From: Candidatus Amesbacteria bacterium GW2011_GWB1_47_19 | Lineage (GTDB): Bacteria; Patescibacteriota; Microgenomatia; CAZETR01; Amesbacteraceae | Assembly: GCA_001002325.1 (NCBI GenBank) | Contig: LCNZ01000006.1 | Span: 110,492-174,491, forward strand | Length of the DNA: 64,000 nt | Direction: 5' to 3' | Shown: piece after piece, positions 4,337 through 63,449 of the stretch | How the letters are laid out: each line of letters begins with the position of its first letter | Numbering within the stretch: the first letter of the stretch is position 1 | Made by a program: the position numbers and the translations under genes | The notes under the pieces: generated by a model | What the model saw: the letters and a program-made list of their open reading frames with translations, nothing else | Database searches by the model: none | Told to the model about the DNA's origin: nothing

Positions 4337-6292
4337 TTAGTCCAGAAGTTTTAATTTATCCAGATAATCGAGAACGGTAATGACGAATTCGGAATGGCTC
4401 CAGGTTAAAGGCGAGGCGGAGATCTGTTCGCCGGTATGCGGGTCCAGCTGCTCTGACAGAAGTCCGGCCGGGGTGGCGTGTTTGGCGGTCCAGGACAGGA
4501 GGCGGCGGACAGCGGCCAGATCGGCCGGTTTTTCTGCCTGAGTCAAATAGTACTGAGCTAACCAGAGGGTGGCGATAAACCAGGGATTACCCGGAAGTGA
4601 AGGGTCTTTTTTGTAATAAGCGTCTCCCTCGTAGCGGGCGACTCCACCGACCAGAGTGGTCAGCCCCAGCCGGAAAAGGGTAAAGGATAAGGCGCGGGTC
4701 AGCTTTTCATCCGAGGGCCCTAACAGACCGAATTTGAAGATACCGTAGACCCCGGAAATATCCACGGTGCGGTCGATAACCGGCGGATCAGCCGAGTAAT
4801 TGATCATTTTGTAAAAGTAGCCGTCTTTGGGGTCGTAAAGATGGGTGAGGATACCGGTTTTGATTTCCGAAGCGGCTGCCAGGTAGCGGGCGGCTTGGTC
4901 TTTTTTGCCCAGGATTTCCGCCAGATTTCCGGCGGCTTTCAGGGCTCCATAAACAGTAGCACTGGTATAAGTTGAAGTGCCGTATTTTTCTTCCCAGATA
5001 TCGTAACTGCTTTTGGGCAGGCCGGTGGCTGGGTAGCGGTAAGAAACCAGAAAATCCGAGGCTTTTTTTATAAGGGAATTATAATGGGCTTCGATAAATT
5101 CCAGATTTCTAGTACTCTGGTAATGCTGCCAAAGTGCGTAAACTACCAGCGCGGTTTCGTCTTCCTGAATCGGCAGTTGCGGCTGTCCGTTTCTGACCCA
5201 GGGGTGCCAGGAACTACCCAGGGACTGATCTACCCGGTACTTGTGCATAAAGAAACCTCCGGGATTGATGACTGAATGGCAAAATTCAAAAAAACGCTGG
5301 GCTACTTCATAATCCCCTGCCCGGTCCAGAGCCATGGCACTGATAGCCCCGTCCCTGGGCCAGACATAACCATAAGTATCCAGGCCGTATTGGAGCAAGT
5401 CCGAATCGCTGGAGGCGATAATACCCCCGCGGCCGTCGGCGTGGGCACGAATTATCAGCAGCGATTTTTTGAAAAGATCAACCACGGGTACCGGCAAATC
5501 CCGGAAATCGGTTTCCCGGCGGTTGGTCCAGGCATGCCAAAAATTGTAGGTACTGTCGATAAGGTGCTGGGGAGTAGATTCCAGGACATAACGGTTCAGA
5601 GTCAAAGCTTCCTCCATAAATTTTGAGGCGGTGATCCAGTAATACATCACCCGGGATTTACCGGCGTCTAAGTTGAGGTGGACACCGATAACCGAATCCA
5701 CCTGGCCGTGTTCAATCGGGTTCTGGGACAAGGTACCATCCTCGGCATCTTTGAAGGTCCCCTCCCGGTTTTCCAGATTGAACAGCCCGGTGCTGTACTC
5801 ATCGAAAGACCGGTCGTCCAATAAGGTATTCACCAAAAAAACCCGCCGGCCTTCGTAGTGCAAAATCACATGATTTTGGGGCTCGAACAAGGCGGTGTCC
5901 CGGCGGAAAGATTCATAGATTTCGAACTGCTGGTTGAAAAAAAGCTTTACCAGGCGGGGACGATCCGCGGTATTGCTGACACTGATGCACCGGATAAAAA
6001 TGTCTTTTTCGTTGTAGACAACGTCGGTAAAATTCAATTTTATCTGCAGGCCGGGATGAGCCGCGGTAATGTCAGTGGCCAGAGAATCGGTCCGGTAAAC
6101 AGAGGAAATCTGCCAGGCGGGATCATCCAGCCAAGAAAAAGAATTTTCCACCCAGACTCCCAAGCGGTGCAGGAACTTGCCGCCGGTGTGGTTTTCCATT
6201 CCCACATAGGGAAAATAGAAATCCCGGACCTGAGCCCGGTGGTCGAGACCGATTAAGAAGTTTCCGTTGGCAAGAACCAGAGAGCGGGGCAT
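4337..6292 (-). CDS. Glycoside hydrolase family 15 (glucoamylase/glucodextranase-like)
   Basis: 651 aa. The N-terminus (LVLANGNFLIGLDHRAQVRDFYFPYVG) is typical of the archaeal/bacterial GH15 N-domain, and an (alpha/alpha)6 domain follows. Confidence 0.8.
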   Translation of the reverse strand: MPRSLVLANGNFLIGLDHRAQVRDFYFPYVGMENHTGGKFLHRLGVWVENSFSWLDDPAWQISSVYRTDSLATDITAAHPGLQIKLNFTDVVYNEKDIFIRCISVSNTADRPRLVKLFFNQQFEIYESFRRDTALFEPQNHVILHYEGRRVFLVNTLLDDRSFDEYSTGLFNLENREGTFKDAEDGTLSQNPIEHGQVDSVIGVHLNLDAGKSRVMYYWITASKFMEEALTLNRYVLESTPQHLIDSTYNFWHAWTNRRETDFRDLPVPVVDLFKKSLLIIRAHADGRGGIIASSDSDLLQYGLDTYGYVWPRDGAISAMALDRAGDYEVAQRFFEFCHSVINPGGFFMHKYRVDQSLGSSWHPWVRNGQPQLPIQEDETALVVYALWQHYQSTRNLEFIEAHYNSLIKKASDFLVSYRYPATGLPKSSYDIWEEKYGTSTYTSATVYGALKAAGNLAEILGKKDQAARYLAAASEIKTGILTHLYDPKDGYFYKMINYSADPPVIDRTVDISGVYGIFKFGLLGPSDEKLTRALSFTLFRLGLTTLVGGVARYEGDAYYKKDPSLPGNPWFIATLWLAQYYLTQAEKPADLAAVRRLLSWTAKHATPAGLLSEQLDPHTGEQISASPLTWSHSEFVITVLDYLDKLKLLD

Positions 6293-8776: not shown

Positions 8777-9589
8777 ATGTATTTAGTATTTGATGTAGGA
8801 GGGACCACAATGCGGGTCGCGGGCAGTCCGGACGGAAGGGTGTTGGGGGATATGTCAGCGGGACCTACACCAAAGAAATACAAGCAGGGGGTGGCGGCAC
8901 TGATTGAAAAGCTGCGTTGGGCGAGCGGGAATAAGCCGATAGTGAGAACCGGAGGCGGCATTGCCGGGGTGGTAGAACAGAAAAAAGGCCTGCTGCTAGC
9001 CTCTCCTAACCTACCGGACTGGGTGGAAAAGCCTTTGAAAAACGATTTGGAGAAGGGCTTGGGTTGCCAGGTGGTGCTGGAGAATGATGCTGCCGTAGCA
9101 GGTTTGGGAGAAGCAACAGTGGGGGCTGGCAGGAGAAAAAGCATTGTCGCCTATCTGACAGTGGGGACGGGAATCGGCGGAGCCAGGATAGTCAATGGAA
9201 AAATAGATGCCAGAGCAATGGGTTTTGAGCCGGGACAACAGATAATAAATGTTGACGGACAAGTAGATTATTGGGAAAACTTTGCCTCCGGAACGGCAAT
9301 TTTTAAAATTCACGGTAAAAGGGGAGAAAATATCAAAGATCCGCAGGTGTGGGAGAATGAAGCCCGACTCCTGGCCATAGGGGTGCACAACACTTGTGTG
9401 ATGTGGTCCCCGGAGATTGTAATTATCGGCGGTTCGGTAATGCAAAGCGTATCTTTTGAAAAATTGGGAGTGCTGGTGAATGAACAATTGAAGATTTTTA
9501 CTAAAGTACCGGAGATAGTACCGGCTCAGCTGGGGGAAAAGAGCGGATTTTACGGTGGGTTGATACTGGCGGGCGGGGGAGAATTTTAG
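8777..9589 (+). CDS. ROK-family glucokinase
   Basis: LVFDVGGTTMRVA at the N-terminus and the ROK motif LENDAAVAGLGE. The stop TAG (9587-9589) overlaps the first bases of the REP1 repeat. Confidence 0.8.
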   Translation: MYLVFDVGGTTMRVAGSPDGRVLGDMSAGPTPKKYKQGVAALIEKLRWASGNKPIVRTGGGIAGVVEQKKGLLLASPNLPDWVEKPLKNDLEKGLGCQVVLENDAAVAGLGEATVGAGRRKSIVAYLTVGTGIGGARIVNGKIDARAMGFEPGQQIINVDGQVDYWENFASGTAIFKIHGKRGENIKDPQVWENEARLLAIGVHNTCVMWSPEIVIIGGSVMQSVSFEKLGVLVNEQLKIFTKVPEIVPAQLGEKSGFYGGLILAGGGEF

Positions 9590-9616
9590 CCTTCACACTC
9601 CCGGTGTGTGAAGGCT
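9588..9616. repeat. REP1 palindromic element, copy a
   Basis: AGCCTTCACAC-TCCCGGT-GTGTGAAGGCT forms an 11-bp perfect stem with a 7-nt loop. It overlaps the stop codons of both neighbouring genes. Confidence 0.75.
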
Positions 9617-10289
9617 AGGTGTCGATTAGAAGGTGCTTGATGTGATGTAGTTCTCGTTGGTAATCGGCATTGTTTAAGACGAATTGTCTATATGCCTGCC
9701 TATCAGAAAATAACTCCAATATTATTTTGGGGTTACATGTCTGGTTATAATACTCATGTGTAAATTGTTTGAATGAAGAGTACGGATAATTTTCCAGATC
9801 GGAAAATTTGTTAACAATCCCTGCTGAATAGGGATTAAGATGAATATAACGCGAAACGTGAAGAAGTTGTTGCCCATTGTCAATTTTTACAGCTTTGAAT
9901 CTTCCCTGAAATAAAGGTCCGTTTCTTCTTCGATGAGTATTAAAATATCGGGTATAACTGTTGGTAACTTTCCTGAGAAAATCTGTAATACCCTGATCGG
10001 TTAACTGTTTGACAAGCAAATGAAAATGATTTGGCATCAAACAAAAGGCAATAATTTCAATACCTGAAACTCCCTTATCCCTTCGCTGAAGAATTTCCTG
10101 TTTAAGTGATTTGGAAAGACGAATAAAATAAGAAAATCTTACAGGAGAAGCTAACTTTTGATAGTAGACGCAAGTCTCAAGCAGATGGTCATAATCCCGG
10201 GTATCCAAGAAGGTGAGTTGGTTGGTTATACCGCGATTAAAAACATGATAGACTTCCCCCGGAGTTAAAAATACTTCTCTTGAGGGCAC
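9615..10289 (-). CDS. REP-associated tyrosine transposase (RayT) / IS200-IS605 TnpA-like HUH Y1 protein
   Basis: It has the HUH motif (LMPNHFHLLV), the YHVFNRG N-terminal motif and a catalytic Tyr context (VSRYIHLNP). It has a GTG start and is flanked by two REP1 copies. Confidence 0.75.
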   Translation of the reverse strand: MPSREVFLTPGEVYHVFNRGITNQLTFLDTRDYDHLLETCVYYQKLASPVRFSYFIRLSKSLKQEILQRRDKGVSGIEIIAFCLMPNHFHLLVKQLTDQGITDFLRKVTNSYTRYFNTHRRRNGPLFQGRFKAVKIDNGQQLLHVSRYIHLNPYSAGIVNKFSDLENYPYSSFKQFTHEYYNQTCNPKIILELFSDRQAYRQFVLNNADYQRELHHIKHLLIDT

Positions 10290-10308
10290 GAGTATATTGT
10301 AGCACTTT

Positions 10309-10337
10309 AGCCTTCACACTCCCGGTGTGTGAAGGCT
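10309..10337. repeat. REP1 palindromic element, copy b
   Basis: Identical core to copy a. It contains the last five codons and the TGA stop of lon. Confidence 0.75.
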
Positions 10338-12758
10338 GAGGGGGAAAGAGTGTTTGGGACGGGGATGGCCGTTGGATAAGAGGGAGCGCAGGGCGACTTT
10401 GAGAACTTCATCCAGATGAGAGACGAAATGGAATTTGAGATCCCGTTTGACACTCTGGGGGACGTCTTCCAGATCTTTGCGGTTTTCCCGGGGAAGAATG
10501 ACCTGACGGATGCCGGCCCGGTGAGCGGCGATGACTTTTTCCTTTACTCCGCCGATTTCCAGCACTCGACCGCGCAGAGTAATTTCTCCCGTCATGGCCA
10601 AGTCCCGGCGGGTAGGCACTTTAGTAAGGGCTGAAATAATAGCCGTGGCAATGGCGATACCTGCAGACGGCCCATCCTTGGGAACCGCACCTTCGGGAAC
10701 GTGAATATGAATATCCATTTTTTTGTAAAAATCTTCTTTGAGGCCCAGAGTCTGCCAGCGGGTACGAATGTAGGAATAAGCGGCTTTGGCGGATTCTTTC
10801 ATAACATCACCCAGCTGGCCGGTGAGCTGGACATCCCCTTTGCCGGGCATAAGGGCAACTTCAATAAATATGATGTCCCCGCCGGCTTCGGTCCAGGCCA
10901 GGCCGGTACTCATACCGATCTCGTCCTTTTTTTCAGCTAAAGTTTCCGGAAAACGCTGAGGACCTAATAGTTTGCGGATGTCTGCCAGAGCAATTTCCGG
11001 TTTGACGCGCTTTTTTTCAGCCAATTGACGGGCGAGCTTGCGACAAATCTTGGCCAGATGGCGTTCCAAGTCTCGGACTCCGGCTTCGCGGGTATAACGA
11101 CTAGTGATTTCCTTCAGAGCCGCCGGGGACAGGCGTAATTTGTTGCCCATACCGTTGGCTGTCAGCTGTTTTGGCCAGAGGAAATCGGCGGCGATATGCT
11201 GTTTTTCATCCAGAGTGTAGCCGGGGAAGGTAATGACTTCCAGCCGGTCCCTGAGAGCCGGGGGGATAGTATCCAGGAGGTTGGCGGTAGTGATAAACAT
11301 GACCCGGGACAGATCGTACGGCACCTCCAGATAATGATCGGAAAACTCGCGATTTTGTTCGGGATCAAGAGCTTCCAGTAAAGCTGCAGAGGGGTCCCCG
11401 CGGTAATCGTTGGCCAGTTTGTCTATTTCGTCCAACATGAAGACCGGGTTACCGGTGCTGGCATTTTTCACCCCCTGAATGATCCGGCCGGGCATACTGC
11501 CGACGTAAGTCCGGCGATGACCCCGGATTTCTGCTTCGTCACGGACACCGCCAAGAGACACCCGTACGAACTTGCGCCCCAGGGACCTGGCTATGGATTT
11601 ACCGATGGAGGTTTTACCCACACCGGGAGGGCCGACGAAACACAAAATGGTTGGTCCTGATGAGCTTTCTTCCTGAGGCTGACGGGCTTTCAGTTTCATA
11701 ACAGCCAGGTATTCCAGTATCCGCTCTTTGACCTTTTTCAAACCGAAATGGTCCGCGTCCAAAACCTTGGCGGCTTTGTCTATGGAAACATGGTTTGGGG
11801 AAAGATGGCTCCAGGGCATATCCACCAGCCAGTCGAGGTAAGTGTGGATGTAATTGGATTCGGGATTCTGGGGACTCATCTGGGCCAGACGGTTTAATTC
11901 TTTCTCGGCTTTGGCGCGAACAGGGGCGGGCATGCGGGCTTGTTTGATTTTTTTTCTGAAGACGGAAATGTCATCATCTTCCTCACTGTTGTCGGCACCC
12001 AGTTTTTCCAATTCCTCCTGAATGGTTTTTTTGCGCTCGCGCAGTACCTGCTCCCGCATATTTTTTTCAAATTTGGCGTGGGTTTTTGAGGATATGGATT
12101 TTTCCAGCTCCAGAACTTTGACTTCATGAACGAGGTAATGCAACACTTCATCGAGACGTTTGTCCACCGACAGGTTTTCCAGCAAACCCTGTTTGATCTG
12201 GGTGGAAATCTCCAGAGAGTTGGCGACCTGGTCCGCCAGTTCGGAAGCGGAAACTCCGGCCATGAGGCGCATGAATACCGGAAAATCCACGGATTTACCC
12301 AGGTTGAAAGCGTTTTTGAATTCCGTAATCACCTGTCGGGCGAGAGCTACCAGCTGGTCGTTTTCGGTCTGCTGTTCGGGCAAAATGTGAACGGGAGCGG
12401 CGAAAAAAGGTTCGGTGGATGAGTAAGGGCCGATTTTTACCCGGGTAACACCCCGGACCTGAGCCAGAATTTCCTGGCCGTAAGGGGCTACCTGTTCAAT
12501 TGTGCATAAAGTGCCGATCGGATAAAGATCGTCGGGAGTCGGAACAGCGGTAGAATTTTTCTGGGCGACAAAAATTATTTTTTTATCCTGATGAACGGCT
12601 GTTTCTATAGCGGCGTTGCTTTTTGGCCGGCCGAATGTCAGATGAGCTTCAGTGTGAGGAAAAACCACACCTTCACGCAGTGCAACAACCGGGAAAGTCC
12701 GGGGCGTTTGGGGCGCAGGAGTTCCGGGGACAGGGACACGATTTATGGAAAACGCCAT
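10314..12758 (-). CDS. lon: ATP-dependent Lon protease
   Basis: Lon N-domain, AAA+ Walker A (GPPGVGKTS) and the Ser-Lys protease domain ([19 protein letters not shown]). The C-terminal ...HTPGV* is encoded inside REP1. Confidence 0.95.
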
Positions 12759-27681: not shown

Positions 27682-27755
27682 TGGGGGATCGTCTAACGGT
27701 AGGACGACAGACTCTGAATCTGTTAATTGGGGTTCGAATCCCTGTCCCCCAGCCA
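27682..27755 (+). tRNA. tRNA-Gln (anticodon CUG), CCA encoded
   Basis: Hand-folded: acceptor TGGGGGA/TCCCCCA, D-arm GTCT..GGAC, anticodon stem ACAGA/TCTGT with loop CTCTGAA, T-arm TGGGG-TTCGAAT-CCCTG, discriminator G, CCA. It resembles E. coli tRNA-Gln. Confidence 0.85.
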
Positions 27756-29246
27756 GTAAGGAGAAGAAAGAGGTTGGGAGGTAGCGCTTTCCGCGCCCCC
27801 GCCTTGCCGGCAGGCAGGCGCCTCCGCAGAAAGCGCGTCAAATCCGCCTTTTTTGAAACTTGCGGACAGCCGCCGATCCTTTAAAAAGAAGTTCGAGCCG
27901 ACAGTTTTTGCCATGATAGATAAATCATGGCAACTATTTTTTGCGCGCGCGATTTTGTGCGCTGAAAGCGCACTATTTAACTCAGCGCCGTTTTGGGAAA
28001 CTTCCTTGATTTTGGAGTTGAGAAGCGATTTTGTTTCGATAAGTTCGTTCTTTTTCTTTTGATAATCTTCGGGGCTAACAATTTTGTCTAAATATCCCTC
28101 GAGCAAACGATCTGTTTTTTCCTCTGTTTCTTTTAGTTGCAGTTGATAAGTTGAAATAATACCGGACGATTTCCCTTTTTCGCTGTTTGCGTCTTTATCC
28201 GCCCACTCGAGAAACTTTTTGGCGGCGTGCGGCGGCAATGATGCTCGCAAAACAATCTCTTTTAGTTGTTTTTCAATTTCCCCTTTATCAATATATTTTT
28301 GCGAGCAATTACCCATTTTCTTGGAGCAGCGATAGTAAATATATTCAGCGGTTCTATTGGTTCGGTTATAATACTTGGTATGTTTTTCCGCCGTAATTGC
28401 GCCGCCGCATTCGCCGCACTTCACCAAACCGAGAAAATCAAATAAGTGTTTATTGTTTTTAACTTTTCTTGTTTTTAATTTCACTATATCTTGACATTTA
28501 TCAAAAAGTTTCTTTGAGATTAAAGGCGGGTGATTGCCTTCGTAAAGTTCGCCGCAAAATTTCATCACTCCGTAGTAAAACGGATCGGTCAAAATTCTTT
28601 TGACTTTATCCAAATGAAGTTCATGGCCGGACTTGTTGAAAATTTTGTTTTGGTTGAAAAATTTGCGGATATCAGCATATCCATAGCCGCCGGTAGCAAA
28701 AAGCTGAAAAGCTTTTTGCACATACTTGGCTCGTTTTTTATCAACCTCTATTTTCTTATTAATATTTATATAACCAAACTGAGCTTGATTTGGCCACTCA
28801 CCGCGGCGAAGTTTTTGACGATTGCCTCGCTTTACATTTTCGGAAAGATTATCCACATAATACTTTGATTGTCCAAACGCGATATTGAGCATAAATTTTC
28901 CTTGGGGGGTGTTTTCAAACCAGAATGAGGGAAATTTTAGATCAAGCAATTTTCCGGTATCTAATAAATAGATAATCTTTCCGCCGTCAACAGAGTTTCT
29001 GGCTAAACGGTCTGGATGCCATGATAAAATTCCATCAGCTTTTCCGTCCTCAATTTCTTTTAGGACTTCTGCAAATTTTTCTCTGCCTGGTTCTTTGGCG
29101 GTTTTACTCTCGGTAATAAAAGAAACGATCTTTAATCCTTCTTTTGCGGCGTGTTCTTCAAGTTCGGCAACTTGAGCCTCAATGGACAAAATTTGTCTGT
29201 CCGGTTCATCCGTAGATTTTCTGCAATACGCTATATATTTAATCAT
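27723..29246 (-). CDS. Large serine recombinase (resolvase domain, recombinase domain, zinc ribbon)
   Basis: N-terminal catalytic motif YCRKSTDEPDRQILSIEAQ, a recombinase domain and a CX2C...C zinc ribbon (KCGECGGAIT...YYRCS). The last ~50 codons (approx. 27723-27872) read through IR X' and into the tRNA, so the true C-terminus is probably shorter. Confidence 0.85.
   Translation of the reverse strand: MIKYIAYCRKSTDEPDRQILSIEAQVAELEEHAAKEGLKIVSFITESKTAKEPGREKFAEVLKEIEDGKADGILSWHPDRLARNSVDGGKIIYLLDTGKLLDLKFPSFWFENTPQGKFMLNIAFGQSKYYVDNLSENVKRGNRQKLRRGEWPNQAQFGYININKKIEVDKKRAKYVQKAFQLFATGGYGYADIRKFFNQNKIFNKSGHELHLDKVKRILTDPFYYGVMKFCGELYEGNHPPLISKKLFDKCQDIVKLKTRKVKNNKHLFDFLGLVKCGECGGAITAEKHTKYYNRTNRTAEYIYYRCSKKMGNCSQKYIDKGEIEKQLKEIVLRASLPPHAAKKFLEWADKDANSEKGKSSGIISTYQLQLKETEEKTDRLLEGYLDKIVSPEDYQKKKNELIETKSLLNSKIKEVSQNGAELNSALSAHKIARAKNSCHDLSIMAKTVGSNFFLKDRRLSASFKKGGFDALSAEAPACRQGGGAESATSQPLSSPYWLGDRDSNPN
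27749..27870. repeat. Inverted repeat X' (left copy, reverse complement of X)
   Basis: Its reverse complement matches 29349-29470 with a single mismatch over about 122 bp. It is GC-rich and begins with CCAGCCA, which also forms the tRNA-Gln 3' end. Confidence 0.85.
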
Positions 29247-29348
29247 GGTTGCTTTATCTCTTAAAAGTTCTTTAAACGAACGATAGTGAGCAGTCCCGAT
29301 TATTCATCGGGACAATTTTTGCGTTTTTTCTTCCTTCTTTTTACGGCG

Positions 29349-29470
29349 GCTGTCCGCAAGTTTCAAAAAAGGCGGATTTGACGCGCTTTCTGCGGAGGCG
29401 CCTGCCTGCCGGCAAGGCAGGGGCGCGGAAAGCGCTACCTCCCAACCTCTTTCTTCTCCTTACTGGCTGG
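29349..29470. repeat. Inverted repeat X (right copy)
   Basis: See the X' entry. The ORF 29378..29728 inside it is a spurious frame. Confidence 0.85.
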
Positions 29471-29563
29471 CGGTTTACGAAAAATGTCGAACTTCATTTG
29501 ATTAGCTCGGCCTTCGGCCTCGCTTGCTCCAGCGCGGCGCCCCCACCCGCCGCGCCTACGAAA
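29466..29563. repeat. Inverted repeat Y (left copy)
   Basis: It is a perfect reverse complement of 30829-30926 over about 98 bp. It overlaps X by the 5-bp GCTGG core. Confidence 0.85.
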
Positions 29564-45050: not shown

Positions 45051-45266
45051 ATGGCAAATACGGCAATTGAATATTCCGAATTTATGCGGGTGAATTGTTA
45101 TCCCTGCGAAATGAAGGAAATTACAAATGACGGAACCAGATTGTACCGGGCATGCGATAAAAACGGTGTACCTAAATTTATACAAGACGGTTTTTGCCTA
45201 ATCGCGGTCGTACGGGGACAGGCGGGAACGATGACTAATGAGGGATTTGTTAAAAAAATCGCTTGA
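45051..45266 (+). CDS. Small zinc-ribbon-like protein, paralog 1
   Basis: 71 aa. Shares the pattern NCxxC...C...GxC[LV][IF]A[VT]V[RK]xQxGxMTxxGF with the downstream ORF. Confidence 0.45.
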   Translation: MANTAIEYSEFMRVNCYPCEMKEITNDGTRLYRACDKNGVPKFIQDGFCLIAVVRGQAGTMTNEGFVKKIA

Positions 45267-45379
45267 AACCTGGTCCTATTGCTTCAGCTCCGGACCTGGC
45301 CTAGACTTTGGGCGGAAGCGACAGGAGCGATAGTTTAATATATTGAAAAAAAGCTTATAATAAGTGATATAATAGATAC

Positions 45380-45601
45380 ATGGCCTGGAATAAGGAAGTG
45401 GAATCCATGTTTGTAGTTTTGAACTGCCGATCCTGTGATAACAATGTATTACGGAATGGTGCTTTCAGGTGTCAGGTCCGAAAGGCCGGAAAATTCAGGC
45501 GAAAGGGGGAGTGTGTTTTTGCAACGGTGAAAGATCAGCCGGGAAAGATGACATTCAAAGGGTTTATTGCATACGAGACAAGTTCCTGGGCGGGATTTTA
45601 G
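45380..45601 (+). CDS. Small zinc-ribbon-like protein, paralog 2
   Basis: 73 aa. See paralog 1. It has its own TATAAT-like promoter upstream. Confidence 0.45.
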   Translation: MAWNKEVESMFVVLNCRSCDNNVLRNGAFRCQVRKAGKFRRKGECVFATVKDQPGKMTFKGFIAYETSSWAGF

Positions 45602-45741
45602 GTTGTGGCTTTTTTATACCCCATATATTAAAAACTTCTCCGGAATCAAACTGATTACTCTGCCTTCCCCGTCACCGCGCTATGCGGCCCTAAGTCTGCA
45701 GGCCAAATATACCCTGTATCTCAAACTTCTACCGCAATTGT

Positions 45742-45767
45742 AGCCTTCACATACCGGAAGTGTGATG
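45742..45767. repeat. REP1 palindromic element, degenerate copy
   Basis: AGCCTTCACA-TACCGGAAG-TGTGATG. It shares the left arm with REP1 but the right arm has diverged. It lies just 3' of the stop of the 45772-46836 gene. Confidence 0.5.
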
Positions 45768-45771
45768 TTGA

Positions 45772-46836
45772 TTATTCCAGGGGGCCCATGGGGAAGGAAG
45801 CCTGTGATATTTCGTTGGCTAAATTTATAACCGGTACCCGGGTGCGGGCCCGGAAATCGTAAACGTAAATCTGCTGGGACCATTGATTGTAGTAGGAAAC
45901 TTCTGACACAGACACCCGGTTGTTATCCAGCCATCGGCCGCAGTATGAATACTGCTGTCCGGAACTGAGTGTCTTTTTTGCCGCCAGATCGTAAAGGATA
46001 TAACCGAAATATCCGGAACTGCCGTTTCCGAAACACACTTTGTTACCGTCGGCATTGGCTATCACTTTTCCGGCATATTCGGCAGCCGTCGCTTCCGTAT
46101 CCGTAATATCCCCGGTAATTCTGTTTATCTGCATTAAATGGACGGGACAGCAGTCCTCTTCCGGTATCCAAAAAAGATAATTATTGTTATTGGCCGGATA
46201 TGCACCGTAGCCGGTATCTACTTCCGCCAGTTTCTCCGCCTCCGGCCAGATCCGGTAAATCCCGTCGCCCATGCTCGCCTCTAATGTGTCGTTATTCCAC
46301 CAGACCCCCATCTCCCCGTTCAGGTCGTCCGGAATTGTCCCCTGATATACTACCTCTGCCTTGATCTCTTCCTTATACGGCTTACTTGCCGGCATATTCG
46401 TGATCTTTACGACCGCAAATTTGTCATAAATTACCGCCGCCAGCCATTTGCTGTTTTTATCCCAGGATATCAATTCATTGTCCGGATACCTGTTTTCCGG
46501 ATCTTTCATTACTTTCCAGATTTCCGCCAGAGACTCCCTCTGGACAAAATAATCCGAAGTTTGTTCCGTAATATATAACTCAAAGGTTTCCACCCCCTCC
46601 CGGGCATAATCGGCCAGGTATGCCAGGTACTTCCCGTCCGGTGACAGTGTCCCCACATCGATATCCCTCCAGATACCGCGCCTTCTGTCCGGCGTCGGTT
46701 CAATATCCTGGCATTTCGGACACGGCTCGCTGACCTTAACATTTTTCTTGATATTTAAGGCCAAAATCCCGTACCCGGCCCAAAGTATGACTGCCGTCAT
46801 CCCCGCCAACACTACCACCTTACTCTTCACAATCAT
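45772..46836 (-). CDS. Membrane-anchored hypothetical protein with a TolB-like beta-propeller signature
   Basis: An N-terminal TM helix and LSPDGKYLAY-type repeats. Confidence 0.45.
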   Translation of the reverse strand: MIVKSKVVVLAGMTAVILWAGYGILALNIKKNVKVSEPCPKCQDIEPTPDRRRGIWRDIDVGTLSPDGKYLAYLADYAREGVETFELYITEQTSDYFVQRESLAEIWKVMKDPENRYPDNELISWDKNSKWLAAVIYDKFAVVKITNMPASKPYKEEIKAEVVYQGTIPDDLNGEMGVWWNNDTLEASMGDGIYRIWPEAEKLAEVDTGYGAYPANNNNYLFWIPEEDCCPVHLMQINRITGDITDTEATAAEYAGKVIANADGNKVCFGNGSSGYFGYILYDLAAKKTLSSGQQYSYCGRWLDNNRVSVSEVSYYNQWSQQIYVYDFRARTRVPVINLANEISQASFPMGPLE

Positions 46837-48374: not shown

Positions 48375-48501
48375 TGTATTTTGAACATAATCCAGAGGCG
48401 GTAATAAGTGCCCAATCGGCGGGGATAATTTCATATCATTATGATCCCGAGAAAAAGGATTTGGAGAGCTTGAAGGAGTTTTTGGACAAAAACACTACCA
48501 G

Positions 48502-48543
48502 TTAATAAGGACAATCCTTTAAGGATAATCCTTTGGGACTATA
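48502..48543. repeat. Operator-like palindromic repeat, copy A (contains the 13-bp palindrome AAGGATAATCCTT)
   Basis: TTAATAAGGACAATCCTTTAAGGATAATCCTTTGGGACTAT. A near-identical copy is at 49731-49772. Confidence 0.55.
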
Positions 48544-48557
48544 CAAATTCCCGTGGT

Positions 48558-48586
48558 TAGCCTGCACACACCGGGAGTGTGAAAGC
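48558..48586. repeat. REP1 palindromic element, inverted-orientation copy
   Basis: AGCCTGCACAC-ACCGGGA-GTGTGAAAGCT. The loop is the reverse complement of the REP1 loop. Confidence 0.6.
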
Positions 48587-48637
48587 TAAATACATTGGCT
48601 AAACCTTGTGGTATATAATACTTGAAGATTAATAATT

Positions 48638-49459
48638 ATGGTTAAAAAGATTATCTTTATTGCTCTGGCAGTTTTGGTTTCGTTCCCACTGCTATATCTC
48701 CCCGCCAAGGCCAAGAATGCTGATCCACCGGACTTACCGGATTCAGATCTACCGGAAAATAACGGCGTTTACCCGGTACCAGGCCATCCGGAACTTAAAC
48801 TTCACGTTCTTTCCCATCCCGCCCGGGGCAGTCGACCTGCCAAACCTACTCCTACTCCCACATCCGCTCCGGTTTTGAATTGCAGTCTTGAAGATCCCGA
48901 TTCTTCGTCGGTCAGCGGTGTTACCGGCTGGTATCTGCCCCCAAGTTTTTCTTACCTTCTCAATTCCTCCAGTGTTCCTGCCTCTGTCGGAGCTGAAAAT
49001 TTAACCTGGATAGCCCAAAACGGTTATTTGCAGTGGGCTGAGGCTTTGAGCGGACAGGTATCCGTCAGCTTCGCTGGTCAGACCTTATCCACCCGGGCGA
49101 GGCTGGACGGCCAAAATATCATTACCTGGGGCAGGGCGGCAAGCGGGACTTTGGGGGTGACTTACATCTGGACCTACGGCGATGGAGAAGTTGCCGAGGC
49201 AGATACCATTATGAATAAAGGTTATGCTTGGAGTTGGTCGGATCCCGATACCTGGCACGGATCTGTCTGCGCTTACCCCGGATCGTATGACGCCCAAAAT
49301 ATCCTGACTCATGAATTGGGCCACTGGTTCGGAACAGATGACGACTATGATCAGGAGTTTGAAAATAATACCATGTATGGTTTCGGCGACGTTTTGGAAA
49401 CCAAAAAGGATACGCTCACTAATGGGGACATAACTGCCGTCCGTTCCATCTACCAGTAA
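48638..49459 (+). CDS. Secreted zinc metalloprotease, metzincin-like (HExxHxxGxxD, snapalysin/matrixin-like)
   Basis: Signal peptide, HELGHWFGTDD, and a Met-turn (NTMYGFG). Confidence 0.7.
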   Translation: MVKKIIFIALAVLVSFPLLYLPAKAKNADPPDLPDSDLPENNGVYPVPGHPELKLHVLSHPARGSRPAKPTPTPTSAPVLNCSLEDPDSSSVSGVTGWYLPPSFSYLLNSSSVPASVGAENLTWIAQNGYLQWAEALSGQVSVSFAGQTLSTRARLDGQNIITWGRAASGTLGVTYIWTYGDGEVAEADTIMNKGYAWSWSDPDTWHGSVCAYPGSYDAQNILTHELGHWFGTDDDYDQEFENNTMYGFGDVLETKKDTLTNGDITAVRSIYQ

Positions 49460-49730
49460 ATTGATTTCGGTCATTGGGATTAAATGATTACTTTATGGAA
49501 AGAATAAGAGGGAGGTTTTTAAAAATTTAATTATTCAAAGCGATACTCACCAATTCAACGAGTATCTAATAAAAAAGGGGGGGGAAACAATATATGAAAA
49601 CAGAAGTAACAACATCTTACGGTCCGGAAAGCCGGGATGATTTGGCTCACTTTCTATTGGGGTCTATATAGAAAGAGATAGTTCTTGGGAGGGACCGGGT
49701 ACTATAAGCAAAGGGCTTGGGGGCTGCTAG

Positions 49731-49772
49731 TTAATAAGGTCGATCCTTTAAGGATAATCCTTTGAGGCTATT
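49731..49772. repeat. Operator-like palindromic repeat, copy B
   Basis: TTAATAAGGTCGATCCTTTAAGGATAATCCTTTGAGGCTAT. It is preceded by CCGGGTACTATAAGCA, which is duplicated from 48349. Confidence 0.55.
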
Positions 49773-54048: not shown

Positions 54049-54079
54049 TAGCCTCGCTACCTGAAAGGTGACGAGGCTA
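54049..54079. repeat. REP2 palindromic element, copy 1
   Basis: TAGCCTCG-CT-ACC-TGAAA-GGT-GA-CGAGGCTA is a two-tier hairpin. It lies 3 nt 3' of the NUDIX stop. Confidence 0.65.
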
Positions 54080-54081
54080 CA

Positions 54082-54576
54082 CTACTCCAAGTCCTGCGCA
54101 GTTAATTGCTCTCCGGTAGAGAATTTTTTAACTTTATCCAAATGGCCAAGCAGAAGGGTTATTAAGTCCGGTACCAAGTCAAGGTGGATTAATTCGTCGG
54201 GAGAAAAAAATTTTATATTCTGCCCTTCGTTTCCTTTCCTGATATGAGATATCTGTTCAGGAGTCAACGCGACCGTGCCGATATATTTATGGTGACCCTG
54301 ATCGTCACCCGCTAACAATTTGCCCAGGATTCGGGTTTGACCGGGCAGGAGAGTAATATTAGCTTCCTCAAGCAGTTCACGCCCGAGCGTCTGATCCGGA
54401 GTTTCTCCCAATTCCCCTACACCGCCCAGAAGCCCCCATTTGTCGGGATGGGGGATATTTGGGTTATTATCCCTGAGCTTGAGCAAGAGTTCACCGTCCG
54501 GTGAAACAACCAAAGCTCCGCAGGAAAAGGGATATGTCCCAATCTTCGTCTCAACATCAACAGCTTCCATTACCAT
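54082..54576 (-). CDS. NUDIX hydrolase (MutT-like)
   Basis: Nudix box GLLGGVGELGETPDQTLGRELLEEANI. Confidence 0.75.
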   Translation of the reverse strand: MVMEAVDVETKIGTYPFSCGALVVSPDGELLLKLRDNNPNIPHPDKWGLLGGVGELGETPDQTLGRELLEEANITLLPGQTRILGKLLAGDDQGHHKYIGTVALTPEQISHIRKGNEGQNIKFFSPDELIHLDLVPDLITLLLGHLDKVKKFSTGEQLTAQDLE

Positions 54577-54660
54577 AACCTCGGGTATTTTACTATAAAT
54601 ACGGGTTATGGGGATTAATGACGATTTGTGTTCCGGTTGAAATGTTGGTGCGAAATGTCT

Positions 54661-54689
54661 AGCCTCGCTACCTGAAAGGTGGCGTGCCT
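54661..54689. repeat. REP2 palindromic element, copy 2
   Basis: AGCCTCGCTACCTGAAAGGTGGCGTGCCT, in the same orientation as copy 1. Confidence 0.65.
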
Positions 54690-54733
54690 AAAGGTTCTAG
54701 TGACCAGGTTTTAGAGGTGGTATTCTGTTTGAT

Positions 54734-55843
54734 ATGGGAAACAGGATCGAGAACAGCCGAGTGGAGGTAGACATGGTAAAAAATTACGGGACTATCGAGT
54801 ACGAGAGATGTGAAAGCGGAGAAATGGTGATGGTGACAACCCGATGGGGGGTAAAGACGGAGACTCCGGCAATTGAAGGAGACTACCCCACGGGTTTTTC
54901 ACATATCTGGAGGAGCGGACCCGAACTGAGCAAACCGGAAAGGGAGAGGCAAGAGCTGGAGGCATTTGCGGAAAGCCTGCGGCTGGTGACCGATAAATCA
55001 CCGGCGCTATTGGCTGTCGGGTCCGGATCCCCGATATTCCCGGATTATGCCGGGGAAATGGCGGCCCGAATGGGATGGAGTCAAACGGAGACCAGCAATG
55101 ATTATCTGGCCTGCAACAGCGGAGTTGAAGCATTGCGAAGAGTCCTGATGGATCCCCGATTCCTGCCCCGAGGAGTACTTGAGGGACGGGAGGTGATTGT
55201 CGGAGGATGGGAGGGGCTGACGAGAATGGTGGACCACGGCGACCCCGACAATACCGATCCCCTTTCCCGGCGGGTGTTTAGTAACGGCGGCGCACTTTTA
55301 AAATTTGTGCCCGGGAGAGACTTGTCTTTGGTAACAGAAGTATTTTTTTCCAGGGAGGATGACGGGAACCTGGCGGCAGTTATGCCATACACCATAGATC
55401 CGGACGGGCCGCTGGTGCAAATTGAAGGGAATACCAAAAAAATCAGGTTACCGGTACCGGAGCCGGGGGTATCGATATGGATGAAGGCCAAACCTACTGC
55501 CAAAATGTTTGTCCGGGCTTTTGAAGAAGGGATAGAAATGTTGTGGGCGAAGTATCTGCAAGGGATAGCGGACAAAATCATTGCCGACAAACCCATATCC
55601 TTGGTGACCGGACACCATCCGAGCACCGGACCATTTCTTTTGACCCAAAAAATACTGGAGCGGGTGTGCGGAATCAGCGCGGAAAGATATCCCTGGGTGG
55701 TAGATGACGGCAATTCCAGCGGGGCGACGGCACCCAAAGCGCTGAATAAACTATTGGGGCGGGTCCGGCCGGGAGAACGGATAATGTATGTAGGTTATGG
55801 GGGAGGGATTAGTTTTACGGGCATAATTATGGACCGGGGATAA
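54734..55843 (+). CDS. Thiolase-fold condensing-enzyme-like protein (FabH / KAS III-like)
   Basis: Cys in an ACNSG context, the GNSSGATAPKAL motif (compare FabH GNTSAASIP) and C-terminal YVGYGGGISFTG (compare GFGGGLTWG). Confidence 0.55.
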   Translation: MGNRIENSRVEVDMVKNYGTIEYERCESGEMVMVTTRWGVKTETPAIEGDYPTGFSHIWRSGPELSKPERERQELEAFAESLRLVTDKSPALLAVGSGSPIFPDYAGEMAARMGWSQTETSNDYLACNSGVEALRRVLMDPRFLPRGVLEGREVIVGGWEGLTRMVDHGDPDNTDPLSRRVFSNGGALLKFVPGRDLSLVTEVFFSREDDGNLAAVMPYTIDPDGPLVQIEGNTKKIRLPVPEPGVSIWMKAKPTAKMFVRAFEEGIEMLWAKYLQGIADKIIADKPISLVTGHHPSTGPFLLTQKILERVCGISAERYPWVVDDGNSSGATAPKALNKLLGRVRPGERIMYVGYGGGISFTGIIMDRG

Positions 55844-56781: not shown

Positions 56782-58602
56782 ATGCCTGAAATACGAAATA
56801 TAGCCGTGATTGCCCATGTGGACCACGGCAAAACCACGCTGGTAGATGCGCTTCTTAAGCAGACGCATGTTTTCCGGGAAAACGAGGCGGAAATGAGCCA
56901 GACCCTGATCATGGACAGCAACGAGCTTGAACGGGAACGGGGAATCACGATTTTGGCCAAAAACTGCTCTGTGAGGTATAGGGACGTAAAAATCAACATT
57001 ATTGACACGCCCGGACACGCGGATTTTTCCGGGGAAGTGGAAAGAACCCTGGGGATGGCCGACGGGGCACTATTAATAGTAGACGCGGCGGAAGGGCCTA
57101 TGCCCCAGACCCGGTTTGTCCTGAAAAAAGCGCTGGAGCTGAAACTGGCGATTATTGTGGTGATTAATAAAATCGATAAAAGGTTTTCCAGGCCGGCGGA
57201 AACCCTGAAGAAAATTGAAACACTGTTTCTGGAACTGGCGGCAGACCACGCCCAGCTGGAATTCCCGGTGTTGTATGCCGTAGGACGGGAAGGAACAGTT
57301 TTTGACCGGATACCAGAGACTGCGGATGCAAAAGGCGACGTGACTCCCCTGCTGGAAGCGATCGTAGCGCATGTTCCCCCAGCCCGGAACCGACCGGGGC
57401 CGTTTAAAATGGTGATCAGCTCGTTGGATTGGGATCCGCACCTGGGGAGGATTGCCGTGGGCAAGATTTACCGGGGAAAAATTGAAAAAGGAATGAAAGT
57501 GGTAACGGCCAACCGGCTGACCAACATCAGAACCGTGGAAAAACTGATGGTATACGAAGGACTGAAGCGAACGGAAACGCAGGCGGAAGAAAGTGGGGAA
57601 ATTGTCTCCCTGTGCGGACTGTCTGATGTAAAAATCGGAGAGACGGTGTGCGATCCGGCGGAAATCACGGCACTGCCCGGAGTAGAGATAGGAGAGCCGA
57701 CACTGCACATCCTGATAGGTCCGAACACCTCACCGTTTGCCGGACGTGAAGGCCAATTTACCACAGGCAGGCAGTTGGAAGAACGGCTGCTACGGGAGCT
57801 GGAAAGCAACCTGAGTTTGCGGGTGGAAAAAAACGGTGGAAAATTTATTGTCTCCGGACGGGGTGAGCTGCATCTGGCGATACTTCTGGAAACCATGCGC
57901 CGGGAAGGCTATGAATTGGAGGCCGGTAAACCGGAAGTAATTGTTAAAAAAGGAGCCGGAGAGACGCTGGAACCAGTGGAAGAAGTGTCCGTGATCGTAC
58001 CCCATCAACATTTGGGAATAATTAGTGAAGAATTCGGCAAGAGGCTGGGAAAACTTTTGAAAATGGACCCCATATCGGAGCAGGAAACGGAATTTATATA
58101 CCATATTCCGACCCGGGCGGTATTGGGCCTGAGAAGCCAGTTGATGACGGCCACCCGGGGAACCATGATTTACTCGAGTGTGATTTTGGGTTACGAAAAG
58201 ATGGGTAAACCGGTTACCGGGAACCGGAGGGGGGTACTGGTAGCCAGCGAGCCCGGACAAGCCCTGGCTTACGGCCTGGAAAATGCCCAAGGGAGGGGGG
58301 CGACGTTTATCGAACCGGCGACTGCGGTGTACGAGGGAATGATTGTAGGCATAAACGCCAAAGAAGGCGATATTTCCATCAATGTTTGCAAAGGAAAGAA
58401 GCTGACCAATATGCGGTCCAAATCCCACGACAGCGTCATCCAGCTGACACCGCCGGTAATATTGACTCTGGAACAAGCGCTGGATTTTCTGGAAGACGAC
58501 GAACTGCTGGAAATTACCCCCCTAGCCCTGAGGCTGCGTAAAAAACACCTGACGGAATTGGAGAGACGTAGAGCCGGCAGGCTTCACACTCCCGGTGTGT
58601 GA
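56782..58602 (+). CDS. typA: Translational GTPase TypA/BipA
   Basis: AHVDHGKTTLVDALL G1 motif and the five-domain EF-G-like architecture. The C-terminal ...HTPGV* is encoded inside REP1. Confidence 0.95.
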   Translation: MPEIRNIAVIAHVDHGKTTLVDALLKQTHVFRENEAEMSQTLIMDSNELERERGITILAKNCSVRYRDVKINIIDTPGHADFSGEVERTLGMADGALLIVDAAEGPMPQTRFVLKKALELKLAIIVVINKIDKRFSRPAETLKKIETLFLELAADHAQLEFPVLYAVGREGTVFDRIPETADAKGDVTPLLEAIVAHVPPARNRPGPFKMVISSLDWDPHLGRIAVGKIYRGKIEKGMKVVTANRLTNIRTVEKLMVYEGLKRTETQAEESGEIVSLCGLSDVKIGETVCDPAEITALPGVEIGEPTLHILIGPNTSPFAGREGQFTTGRQLEERLLRELESNLSLRVEKNGGKFIVSGRGELHLAILLETMRREGYELEAGKPEVIVKKGAGETLEPVEEVSVIVPHQHLGIISEEFGKRLGKLLKMDPISEQETEFIYHIPTRAVLGLRSQLMTATRGTMIYSSVILGYEKMGKPVTGNRRGVLVASEPGQALAYGLENAQGRGATFIEPATAVYEGMIVGINAKEGDISINVCKGKKLTNMRSKSHDSVIQLTPPVILTLEQALDFLEDDELLEITPLALRLRKKHLTELERRRAGRLHTPGV

Positions 58603-58607
58603 AAGCT
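58579..58607. repeat. REP1 palindromic element, copy e
   Basis: AGGCTTCACAC-TCCCGGT-GTGTGAAAGCT. It contains the typA stop codon. Confidence 0.7.
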
Positions 58608-58653
58608 GAATGTGAGCAAACCGACATTGTTTTTTGGCGGATTATGATACACT

Positions 58654-62982: not shown

Positions 62983-63015
62983 CTAGGCTCGCTACCTGAA
63001 AGGTGGCGTGGCTAG
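62983..63015. repeat. REP2 palindromic element, copy 3
   Basis: CTAGGCTCGCTACCTGAAAGGTGGCGTGGCTAG. It overlaps the stop codon of the 63012-63449 gene. Confidence 0.65.
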
Positions 63016-63449
63016 AGGGTAGGGGTGAGATTTTCCGGGAAAGCGCGGAGGACGGGATTGAGCTGGATGTTTTGGGCAGTAACACTGCCATCTGAGTTTT
63101 CCGTTCCGAACACCGAGACTTTTTCCCCCACTTTCAATTCTTCGGGTGTACCCGAAGCGGCTTTGTTGATCTCTGTTTTGTCGGATAAAATGACGATTTT
63201 GCTGCCTCCGTCATTGAGTTTGACGGTGAAGGATTTGTCATCCCGATTGATAATTTCCCCGGCGACGGGACGGAATCCCATACGATTACCATTACCGCTG
63301 GGCACACCCCTGAACTGCAGGTTACCATCGGGACGGTTGAACCCCGTGGTGCGTTTTGACGTCTGATATTTCATACCGGCAAAAAAGCCTCCGCCGCCGG
63401 CGATAGCGACTGCAGCAATTATTAATAAAATTACAGTTTGTTTATTCAA
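63012..63449 (-). CDS. Hypothetical exported protein (DUF5666-like)
   Basis: Signal/TM segment and a repetitive beta-rich region. Confidence 0.4.
   Translation of the reverse strand: MNKQTVILLIIAAVAIAGGGGFFAGMKYQTSKRTTGFNRPDGNLQFRGVPSGNGNRMGFRPVAGEIINRDDKSFTVKLNDGGSKIVILSDKTEINKAASGTPEELKVGEKVSVFGTENSDGSVTAQNIQLNPVLRAFPENLTPTL

Follow-up and report, generated by a model that had tools for sequence, protein, structure and literature searches.

A 64,000-nt stretch of the genome of Candidatus Amesbacteria bacterium GW2011_GWB1_47_19 (contig LCNZ01000006.1 of assembly GCA_001002325.1, forward-strand positions 110,492 to 174,491; hereafter the window, whose coordinates are used unless a locus is named) probably carries a REPtron/TIRtron-like unit, in which a single-copy, fixed gene for a RayT-class Y1 HUH transposase is accompanied by its cognate palindromes. 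These resemble repetitive extragenic palindromic (REP) sequences and are referred to here as REP1. A first-pass annotation, made from the sequence alone, had read the locus as a REPtron-like unit in what looked like a reduced genome, and the source, a groundwater member of the Candidate Phyla Radiation (CPR), bears out the latter impression. Of all cases in which a host has retained a transposase, RayT/REP systems have been examined most closely, but almost exclusively in Proteobacteria and with REPs of the GTAG type. Patescibacteria have genomes of about 1 Mb with few mobile elements.

The RayT-Like Gene and the REP1 Palindromes

The gene and the REP1 copies of the window are as follows:

9615..10289, minus strand: RayT-like Y1 HUH gene, 224 aa; HUH motif at 10020-10028, catalytic Tyr148 at 9846-9848
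9585..9617, plus strand: REP1 downstream of the RayT-like gene; 31-nt palindrome at 9587-9617
10306..10337, plus strand: REP1 upstream of the RayT-like gene; ends 17 nt before the GTG start
45741..45770, minus strand: degenerate solo REP1; two core mismatches, 1-2 nt beyond the stop of the open reading frame (ORF) 45772..46836 (minus strand)
48558..48588, minus strand: solo REP1, inverted; in the spacer between two plus-strand ORFs
58579..58609, plus strand: solo REP1; gives the BipA/TypA gene 56782..58602 its LHTPGV* and its TGA stop at 58600-58602

REP1 has the sequence TAGCCTTCACACNNNNNNNGTGTGAAGGCTA. The two repeats that flank the gene, TTTAGCCTTCACACTCCCGGTGTGTGAAGGCT, are identical over 32 nt (9585-9616 and 10306-10337) and lie on the same strand, as direct copies. 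Within them, the 29-nt palindrome AGCCTTCACAC-TCCCGGT-GTGTGAAGGCT, with an 11-bp stem and a TCCCGGT loop, occupies 9588-9616 and 10309-10337, just where the first-pass annotation had placed it, and in the left copy it reaches 31 nt (TAGCC...GGCTA). Further copies had been reported at 45742 (degenerate), 48558 (inverted) and 58579, and a search with the 17-nt core CACACTCCCGGTGTGTG at up to three mismatches agrees, with matches at 9594, 10315 and 58585 on the plus strand and at 48565 and 45748 on the minus strand, the last with two mismatches. These five matches compare with 0.09 expected by chance, none of 100 shuffles reached five, and the similarity among the copies runs past the core. Approximately 73 kb were read for palindromes, namely the 64-kb window and some 9.5 kb through loci L125 and L126, and a sixth exact core lies 6-7 kb past the window end (core at L125:3626, element at L125:3620-3650).

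Folded as single-stranded DNA (ssDNA), both flanking copies reached -12.5 kcal/mol (z = -6.5) and were by far the most stable, while the solo copies, which have mismatches in the stem, reached -6 to -7 kcal/mol (z ~ -2.4); the degenerate copy at 45741 is decayed and barely folds. The window has only 11 hairpins whose stems reach 10 bp or more, versus about 3 in shuffles, and the genome is thus not packed with palindromes. With Rfam models, two tRNAs were the only matches in the window, and the palindromes had none.

Two of the solo copies have repeats or unusual ORFs nearby. Two small ORFs (71 and 73 aa), Cys-rich and zinc-ribbon-like, lie at 45051-45601, within an otherwise gene-poor stretch of ~780 nt that adjoins the degenerate REP1. 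A pair of 48-nt direct repeats, 88% identical (48495-48542 and 49724-49771) and with tandem AAGGAyAATCCTT mini-palindromes inside, brackets the REP1 at 48558 together with an M10-like peptidase ORF (48638..49459).

The RayT-Like Protein

The 224-aa ORF with an HUH motif and a catalytic Tyr context described in the first-pass annotation is present, and its GTG start lines up with the conserved MPxR N-terminus of the family. The HUH motif is H88-F-H90, within NHFH, and the catalytic Tyr148 stands within SRYIHLNP; H88, H90, Y148, N152 and P153 were invariant in alignments of 26 and 30 homologues. Assignment to the RayT/IS200-like HUH transposases was upheld by several comparisons. The protein matched Pfam PF01797 (Y1_Tnp) at 39.5 bits versus a cut-off of 23 (E 7.3e-10). 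A family profile searched against the PDB retrieved Escherichia coli TnpA_REP (4ER8) as the best match (E 1e-5), with ISDra2 and IS608 TnpA ranking behind it (E ~2e-3). An AlphaFold (AF2) model (pLDDT 84.9, pTM 0.84) likewise had 4ER8 as its top Foldseek match (E 2e-6, TM 0.70 on the target), followed by the IS608/ISDra2 transposases. Residues 188-222 of the model form a helical C-terminal region, and no Bac_DnaA_C or helix-turn-helix (HTH) Pfam domain was matched in the C-terminal part at E <= 0.1.

The motif set of the protein, NHFH, FQ (GPLFQG), YIHLNP and SS (YPYSSF), includes the Tyr context Y---NP of class 2 TnpAY1 and not the Y---Q of IS200. The signature of TnpAY1 subclass 2.1 is NH[YF]H, FQ, Y[IV]HLNP and an SS tail, with a median length of ~238 aa (Table 1 in Quentin et al., 2018; PMC6006769), and this subclass was equated by the same authors with the Bertels Group 1 RAYTs (PMC5581495) and most of the Di Nocera TIRYTs. 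Its subgroup 2.1.2 is heterogeneous for a C-terminal HTH or Bac_DnaA_C-like domain (PMC6006769). Judged by motifs alone rather than by a phylogeny or a subclass hidden Markov model, the RayT-like protein is a putative member of subclass 2.1 (Bertels Group 1 RAYT, TIRYT).

No second RayT-like gene was found by tblastn across the window, and no tnpB is adjacent to the gene. A phage origin was considered and rejected, as only one weak relative occurs in 2.9 million viral contigs and the PHROG match of the protein is to a family of no known function only.

Association of Gene and Palindromes Across the Family

A word-indexed protein search scored at least ~8,000 candidates. The best 120 were about 48-57% identical to the RayT-like protein, and the few among them for which an organism is named belong to the Patescibacteria (Amesbacteria, Levybacteria and Gottesmanbacteria). 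A profile search of 1.84 billion cluster representatives returned 1,415 clusters (50% identity) at E <= 1e-30 and 15,927 at E <= 1e-10.

The palindromes were followed from both directions. Scanning the 18-nt core TCACACTCCCGGTGTGTG over 596 Gb of species-representative genomes, which do not include the source genome, gave 14 loci, nearly all extending to TCACAC...GTGTGA. Three metagenome-assembled genomes (MAGs; loci L018, L019 and L021) have the core immediately next to a homologue of 44-51% identity; at L021 the core flanks the homologue on both sides, and at L018 the downstream copy is a one-base loop variant. Starting instead from the protein, we sampled 80 metagenome loci with homologues of 33-50% identity, 70 of which had usable flanks. 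Flanks of 120 nt on either side of the gene had a repeat of at least 13 nt in common at 48 of these 70 loci (69%), whereas among 350 control ORFs taken from these loci this was so for 3 (0.9%). The flanking repeats are near-perfect palindromes with the hairpin consensus wTyCACCy-NNN-rGGTGrAw; the upstream one mostly lies 10-80 nt from the start codon, and the downstream one 0-35 nt from the stop. The association of gene and palindromes is therefore a property of the family, in line with the REPtron-like unit with cognate palindromes proposed for this locus.

An exact core beside most homologues had been expected, and this expectation was given up: only about 6 of the 80 loci carry the core within three mismatches. 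The stems are lineage-specific.

The core TCACACTCCCGGTGTGTGA was also seen as close inverted dimers or clusters resembling REPINs, at L015:2460-2499, L017:~5460-5502, L022:5428-5466 and L011:455-590, those in L015, L017 and L022 being inverted dimers. The MAGs with REPIN-like cores are labelled Makaraimicrobium, Pseudomonadales, "uncultured bacterium" and Gammaproteobacteria, and no RayT-like gene was found near the clusters within the 8-kb loci. MAG CAYTCO01 holds seven exact cores over five contigs.

REP2 and the Placement of Palindromes at Gene Ends

A repeat search recovered a second family, REP2, with the sequence TAGCCTCGCTACC-TGAAA-GGTGACGAGGCTA (also written TAGCCTCGCTACC-TGAAA-GGTGGCGTGGCTA), in three copies in the window:

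54049..54079, plus strand: REP2; 3 nt from the stop of the NUDIX ORF 54082..54576 (minus strand)
54660..54690, plus strand: REP2; in the spacer from which the NUDIX ORF and ORF 54734..55843 diverge
62984..63014, plus strand: REP2; ORF 63012..63449 (minus strand) takes its stop codon from the 3' foot

REP1 and REP2 are both 31 nt long and share TAGSC...GSCTA feet but differ in their stems, and hairpins resembling the REP2 stem flank the homologues of L054 and L059. Two REP2 copies bracket the NUDIX gene.

A stop codon is overlapped by, or lies within 3 nt of, seven of the nine REP1 and REP2 copies. The feet of the REP1 at 9587-9617 are themselves TAG stops, of the ROK gene (9587-9589) and, on the minus strand, of the RayT-like gene (9615-9617). 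The upstream copy at 10306..10337 encodes the end of Lon, SLHTPGV*, with the stop at 10314-10316. The same REP-encoded tail, LHTPGV*, can be read from either strand of the near-palindrome and ends three unrelated proteins: Lon (10314-10337), BipA/TypA (58582-58602) and an SdpI-like membrane protein (L125:3620-3643). The Lon C-terminus is variable among relatives, and palindrome-encoded residues end it in three of the four lineages in which it is complete. In the master REP1 copy, every one of the six frames meets a stop within 35 nt, and the nine copies average 4.4 stop-bearing frames of six versus roughly 2.6 expected by our own estimate, which may point to an excess of stop codons in the palindromes. 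Their position at the extreme 3' ends of genes, with stops in most frames, would explain why solo palindromes are tolerated in a compact genome.

The first-pass annotation had also put forward the palindromes as stabilizers of mRNA 3' ends or as terminators. Placement at gene 3' ends is compatible with a role in 3'-end RNA, and this part of the proposal fits; the intrinsic-terminator part does not, with no T-tract or intrinsic terminator pattern (0 sites) in 9300-10700. Facing the RayT-like gene, the upstream REP1 copy bears a -35-like TTCACA, which a -10-like hexamer follows 18 nt further on; both are matches to consensus only.

Copy Number, Synteny and Orientation of the Locus

A protein identical to the RayT-like protein is present in the Candidatus Amesbacteria assemblies GCA_003488165.1 and GCA_001773795.1 and in eight groundwater metagenome assemblies, and all 10 contigs that hold it show the context Lon, RayT-like gene, ROK. 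The right-hand part of the window is also found in GCA_000998545.1. Homologues behave similarly: P0063 lies between SecDF and the CCA enzyme in 10 of the 10 places listed of 178 index blocks, even where strain neighbors differ, and P0010 has a single context. A single copy, the lack of near-identical duplicates and one context mark domesticated RAYTs (Bertels et al., 2017), and all three hold here for sampled contigs as opposed to closed genomes. On a further mark, vertical descent in step with housekeeping genes, the conserved adjacency to ROK and Lon described below points one way, and the divergence and orientation flips of the RayT-like gene the other.

ROK adjoins the RayT-like gene in six lineages, namely that of the window, L119 and L121-L124. 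Lon stands beside it in L119, as identified by Pfam, and in L121-L123, as identified by C-terminal sequence; L124 shows only ROK, a glycosyltransferase and a GH57 gene. Comparable Lon proteins from these loci are 74-94% identical to each other. The RayT-like gene is co-oriented with Lon in the window and in L121-L123, and with ROK in L119, where it converges on Lon, and in L124. In L119 an extra 94-aa ORF lies between ROK and the RayT-like gene. A search with ROK gave no relatives with identities from 52% to 99%, and hence no close genome without the unit.

The orientation of the palindrome loop also varies, being antisense to the gene in the window and sense in L018, L019 and L021. This would be the expected trace of an inversion in which the inner arms of the two palindromes recombined. 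In-place inversion combined with fast evolution, and replacement at a REP-marked site, are not separable with six loci.

Weighing the Explanations

Several observations count against a REPtron in the window. The palindromes are modest in number, with six REP1 and three REP2 copies, or nine, in the ~73 kb. Of the profile checks suggested in the first-pass annotation, the one against Y1_Tnp succeeded, but the protein scored 57.1 bits with the NCBIfam equivalog NF047646 (REP_Tyr_transpos), under its cut-off of 80. The tetranucleotide guide anticipated 5' of the REPs did not materialize: the hairpin foot is not GT[AG]G, the better-conserved strand reading CTAG, TCAG, TTAG, TCAG and ATAG, and GTAG is present only at the degenerate copy at 45741. 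No inverted pairs of the REPIN or bacterial interspersed mosaic element (BIME) kind occur in the window, where all copies are singlets and the flanking pair is on the same strand. Near subclass 2.1 genes, neither automatic nor manual search recovered REP-like sequences (PMC6006769). Most homologue loci show just two flanking copies within 10-20 kb, which an IS-like unit would fit equally well. A crude Mantel test of protein identity versus hairpin-arm similarity gave r = 0.13, reached in 77 of 2000 permutations, and because it is weak no co-evolution of protein and hairpin is claimed. Between L119 and L122, where the RayT-like genes lie in opposite orientation, Lon is 94% and ROK 82% identical, compared with 61% for the RayT-like protein; because the latter is so much more diverged than its neighbors, strict vertical descent is not established. 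Finally, binding, cleavage and mobility are all properties that we infer for the RayT-like protein by analogy.

An autonomous IS200-like insertion sequence (IS) appears unlikely, although it accounts for some of these points. The direct hairpins would then be the subterminal left and right ends of a mobile hairpin-gene-hairpin unit of ~750 bp, and the solo hairpins its remnants or miniature derivatives. As in IS200, identical direct hairpins stand ~720 bp apart around a single Y1 gene, and, besides the two flanking copies alone in most relatives, a 51% homologue lies at an unrelated locus in another Amesbacteria genome; the orientation flips and the excess divergence at the Lon-ROK locus could mean re-insertion. 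The same locus speaks for a fixed gene, however, in that the order Lon-RayT-ROK is kept where Lon is 74-94% identical, and each sampled genome region has a single copy, while each protein keeps to one context through many samples and strains. The class 2 motifs NHFH and YIHLNP take the place of the class 1.1 DH[VI]H and Y[IV]ENQ, tnpB is not adjacent, the family is nearly absent from viral contigs, and solo palindromes exist without the gene.

It is quite improbable that the palindromes are host regulatory or RNA elements (mRNA 3'-end hairpins, non-canonical terminators, or an operator or promoter) that spread independently of the enzyme, with their proximity to the gene reflecting autoregulation. 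The seven of nine copies that abut stop codons at gene 3' ends, the -35-like and -10-like hexamers that face the gene and a near-perfect dyad symmetry that would suit a dimeric binder of double-stranded DNA all agree with such a role. It sits poorly with the lack of a terminator pattern and with a palindrome on both flanks at 69% of homologues versus 0.9% of controls, the known signature of HUH Y1 enzymes with hairpin substrates; the closest structure, 4ER8, is an HUH Y1 enzyme bound to a REP hairpin, and identical cores at non-homologous sites are left without a mechanism. Chance matches or assembly artefacts can be given practically no credence, and for the window copies are already refuted by five core matches in 64 kb against 0.09 expected, by similarity that extends past the core and by the same arrangement in two NCBI and eight independent metagenome assemblies. 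In the wider scan chance may have some part, as the 18-mer is expected ~17 times in 596 Gb by our arithmetic and the high-GC singletons L016 and L023 may be random.

Proposed Mechanism and Significance

The mechanism that we propose for the REPtron/TIRtron-like unit is based on the biochemistry of TnpA_REP and IS608 TnpA (summarized in PMC6006769). The RayT-like protein, probably dimeric, would bind the palindromes when these are folded as ssDNA hairpins at the replication fork, for example on the lagging-strand template. Tyr148, together with a metal bound by His88 and His90, would cut next to the palindrome, and the strands would then be rejoined. Such cleavage and rejoining may place solo palindromes at new sites, by copying or by transfer, and recombination at the two flanking palindromes may invert the RayT-like gene in place, which would account for the inversion of the gene between related lineages. 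Where solo palindromes are transcribed, they could form 3'-terminal RNA hairpins.

A further idea goes well beyond this, and we put it forward only tentatively, as a doubtful possibility. The large subclass-2.1-like clade, prominent in Patescibacteria and believed so far to be free of REPs, may be a distinct kind of REPtron kept in streamlined genomes for the benefit of the host, whose enzyme inverts its own gene by way of the two flanking palindromes as an on/off or strand switch and seeds 31-nt "stop-cassette" palindromes, which stop most frames of both strands, at gene 3' ends, thereby setting C-termini (LHTPGV*) and mRNA 3' hairpins in genomes poor in canonical terminators.

The known REPtron principle is unchanged by these results. 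They reveal a large RayT-like clade (the 1,415 clusters), with named members in the Patescibacteria, whose genes are systematically bracketed by cognate palindromes even though the nearest described subclass was reported to be REP-less, and they bring the CPR and a new type of palindrome within the REPtron concept. A full-text search for literature linking RAYT, REPIN or REP with Patescibacteria or the CPR returned none, apart from incidental KEGG annotation. The 224-aa protein and the 31-nt hairpin make a simple in vitro system, and the question is raised whether, in minimal genomes, such palindromes have a part in forming gene ends and local inversions.

Other Repeats in the Window

Away from the RayT-like locus, the window contains two adjoining pairs of long inverted repeats, which look like invertible or integrated segments. 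The first (27746-27875 and 29344-29473; 130 nt, 98% identical) brackets a large serine recombinase ORF, 27723..29246 on the minus strand (Resolvase, Recombinase and Zn_ribbon_recom domains), and adjoins tRNA-Gln (27682-27755). The second (29466-29560 and 30832-30926; 95 nt, 99% identical) brackets peptide deformylase (29814..30416) and ORF 30439..30780. As calculated from coordinates, the end of the NCBI contig DNMO01000006.1 falls close to these inverted repeats.

Comparison With Known Systems

The unit shares with subclass 2.1 and the TIRYTs its motifs, its protein length, a low copy number per genome and a repeat on each side of the gene. The "TIRtrons" of Di Nocera et al. (2013; PMC3733652) are defined by terminal inverted repeats, some of them self-complementary and some moderately repeated, many of which carry GGGGWSAS. 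Unlike these, the RayT-like gene here is flanked by short, near-perfect palindromes with solo copies elsewhere.

With IS200 (IS200/IS605, subclass 1.1) the likeness lies in a unit of ~0.7 kb with one Y1 HUH gene and similar same-strand hairpins, one of them near the start codon. The Amesbacteria unit departs from IS200 in having class 2 motifs instead of DH[VI]H and Y[IV]ENQ, a single copy in a fixed context, solo hairpins away from the gene and a synteny kept across lineages.

The E. coli REPtron (TnpA_REP/YafM, 4ER8; subclass 2.2, Bertels Group 2) is likewise a single-copy Y---NP Y1 HUH gene with flanking cognate palindromes, and E. coli REPs and BIMEs are likewise dispersed as additional copies, mostly just downstream of genes. 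Although 4ER8 is the closest solved structure by sequence and fold, its identity to the Amesbacteria protein is 19%; the latter has NHFH where TnpA_REP has DHLH, and is longer, with extra N- and C-terminal parts (224 versus 165 aa). The palindrome feet are [T/C]TAG..CTA[A/G] as opposed to the GT[AG]G foot of E. coli REPs, whose bulged long stem and inverted dimers (REPINs or BIMEs) were not seen in the Amesbacteria palindromes. The copies that flank the gene are direct here and inverted in E. coli, and palindrome copies would number tens at most, a guess extrapolated to a ~1-Mb genome, versus hundreds in the E. coli REPtron. With a palindrome on both sides of the gene and further copies elsewhere, the RayT-like unit works like a REPtron, but is no canonical member.

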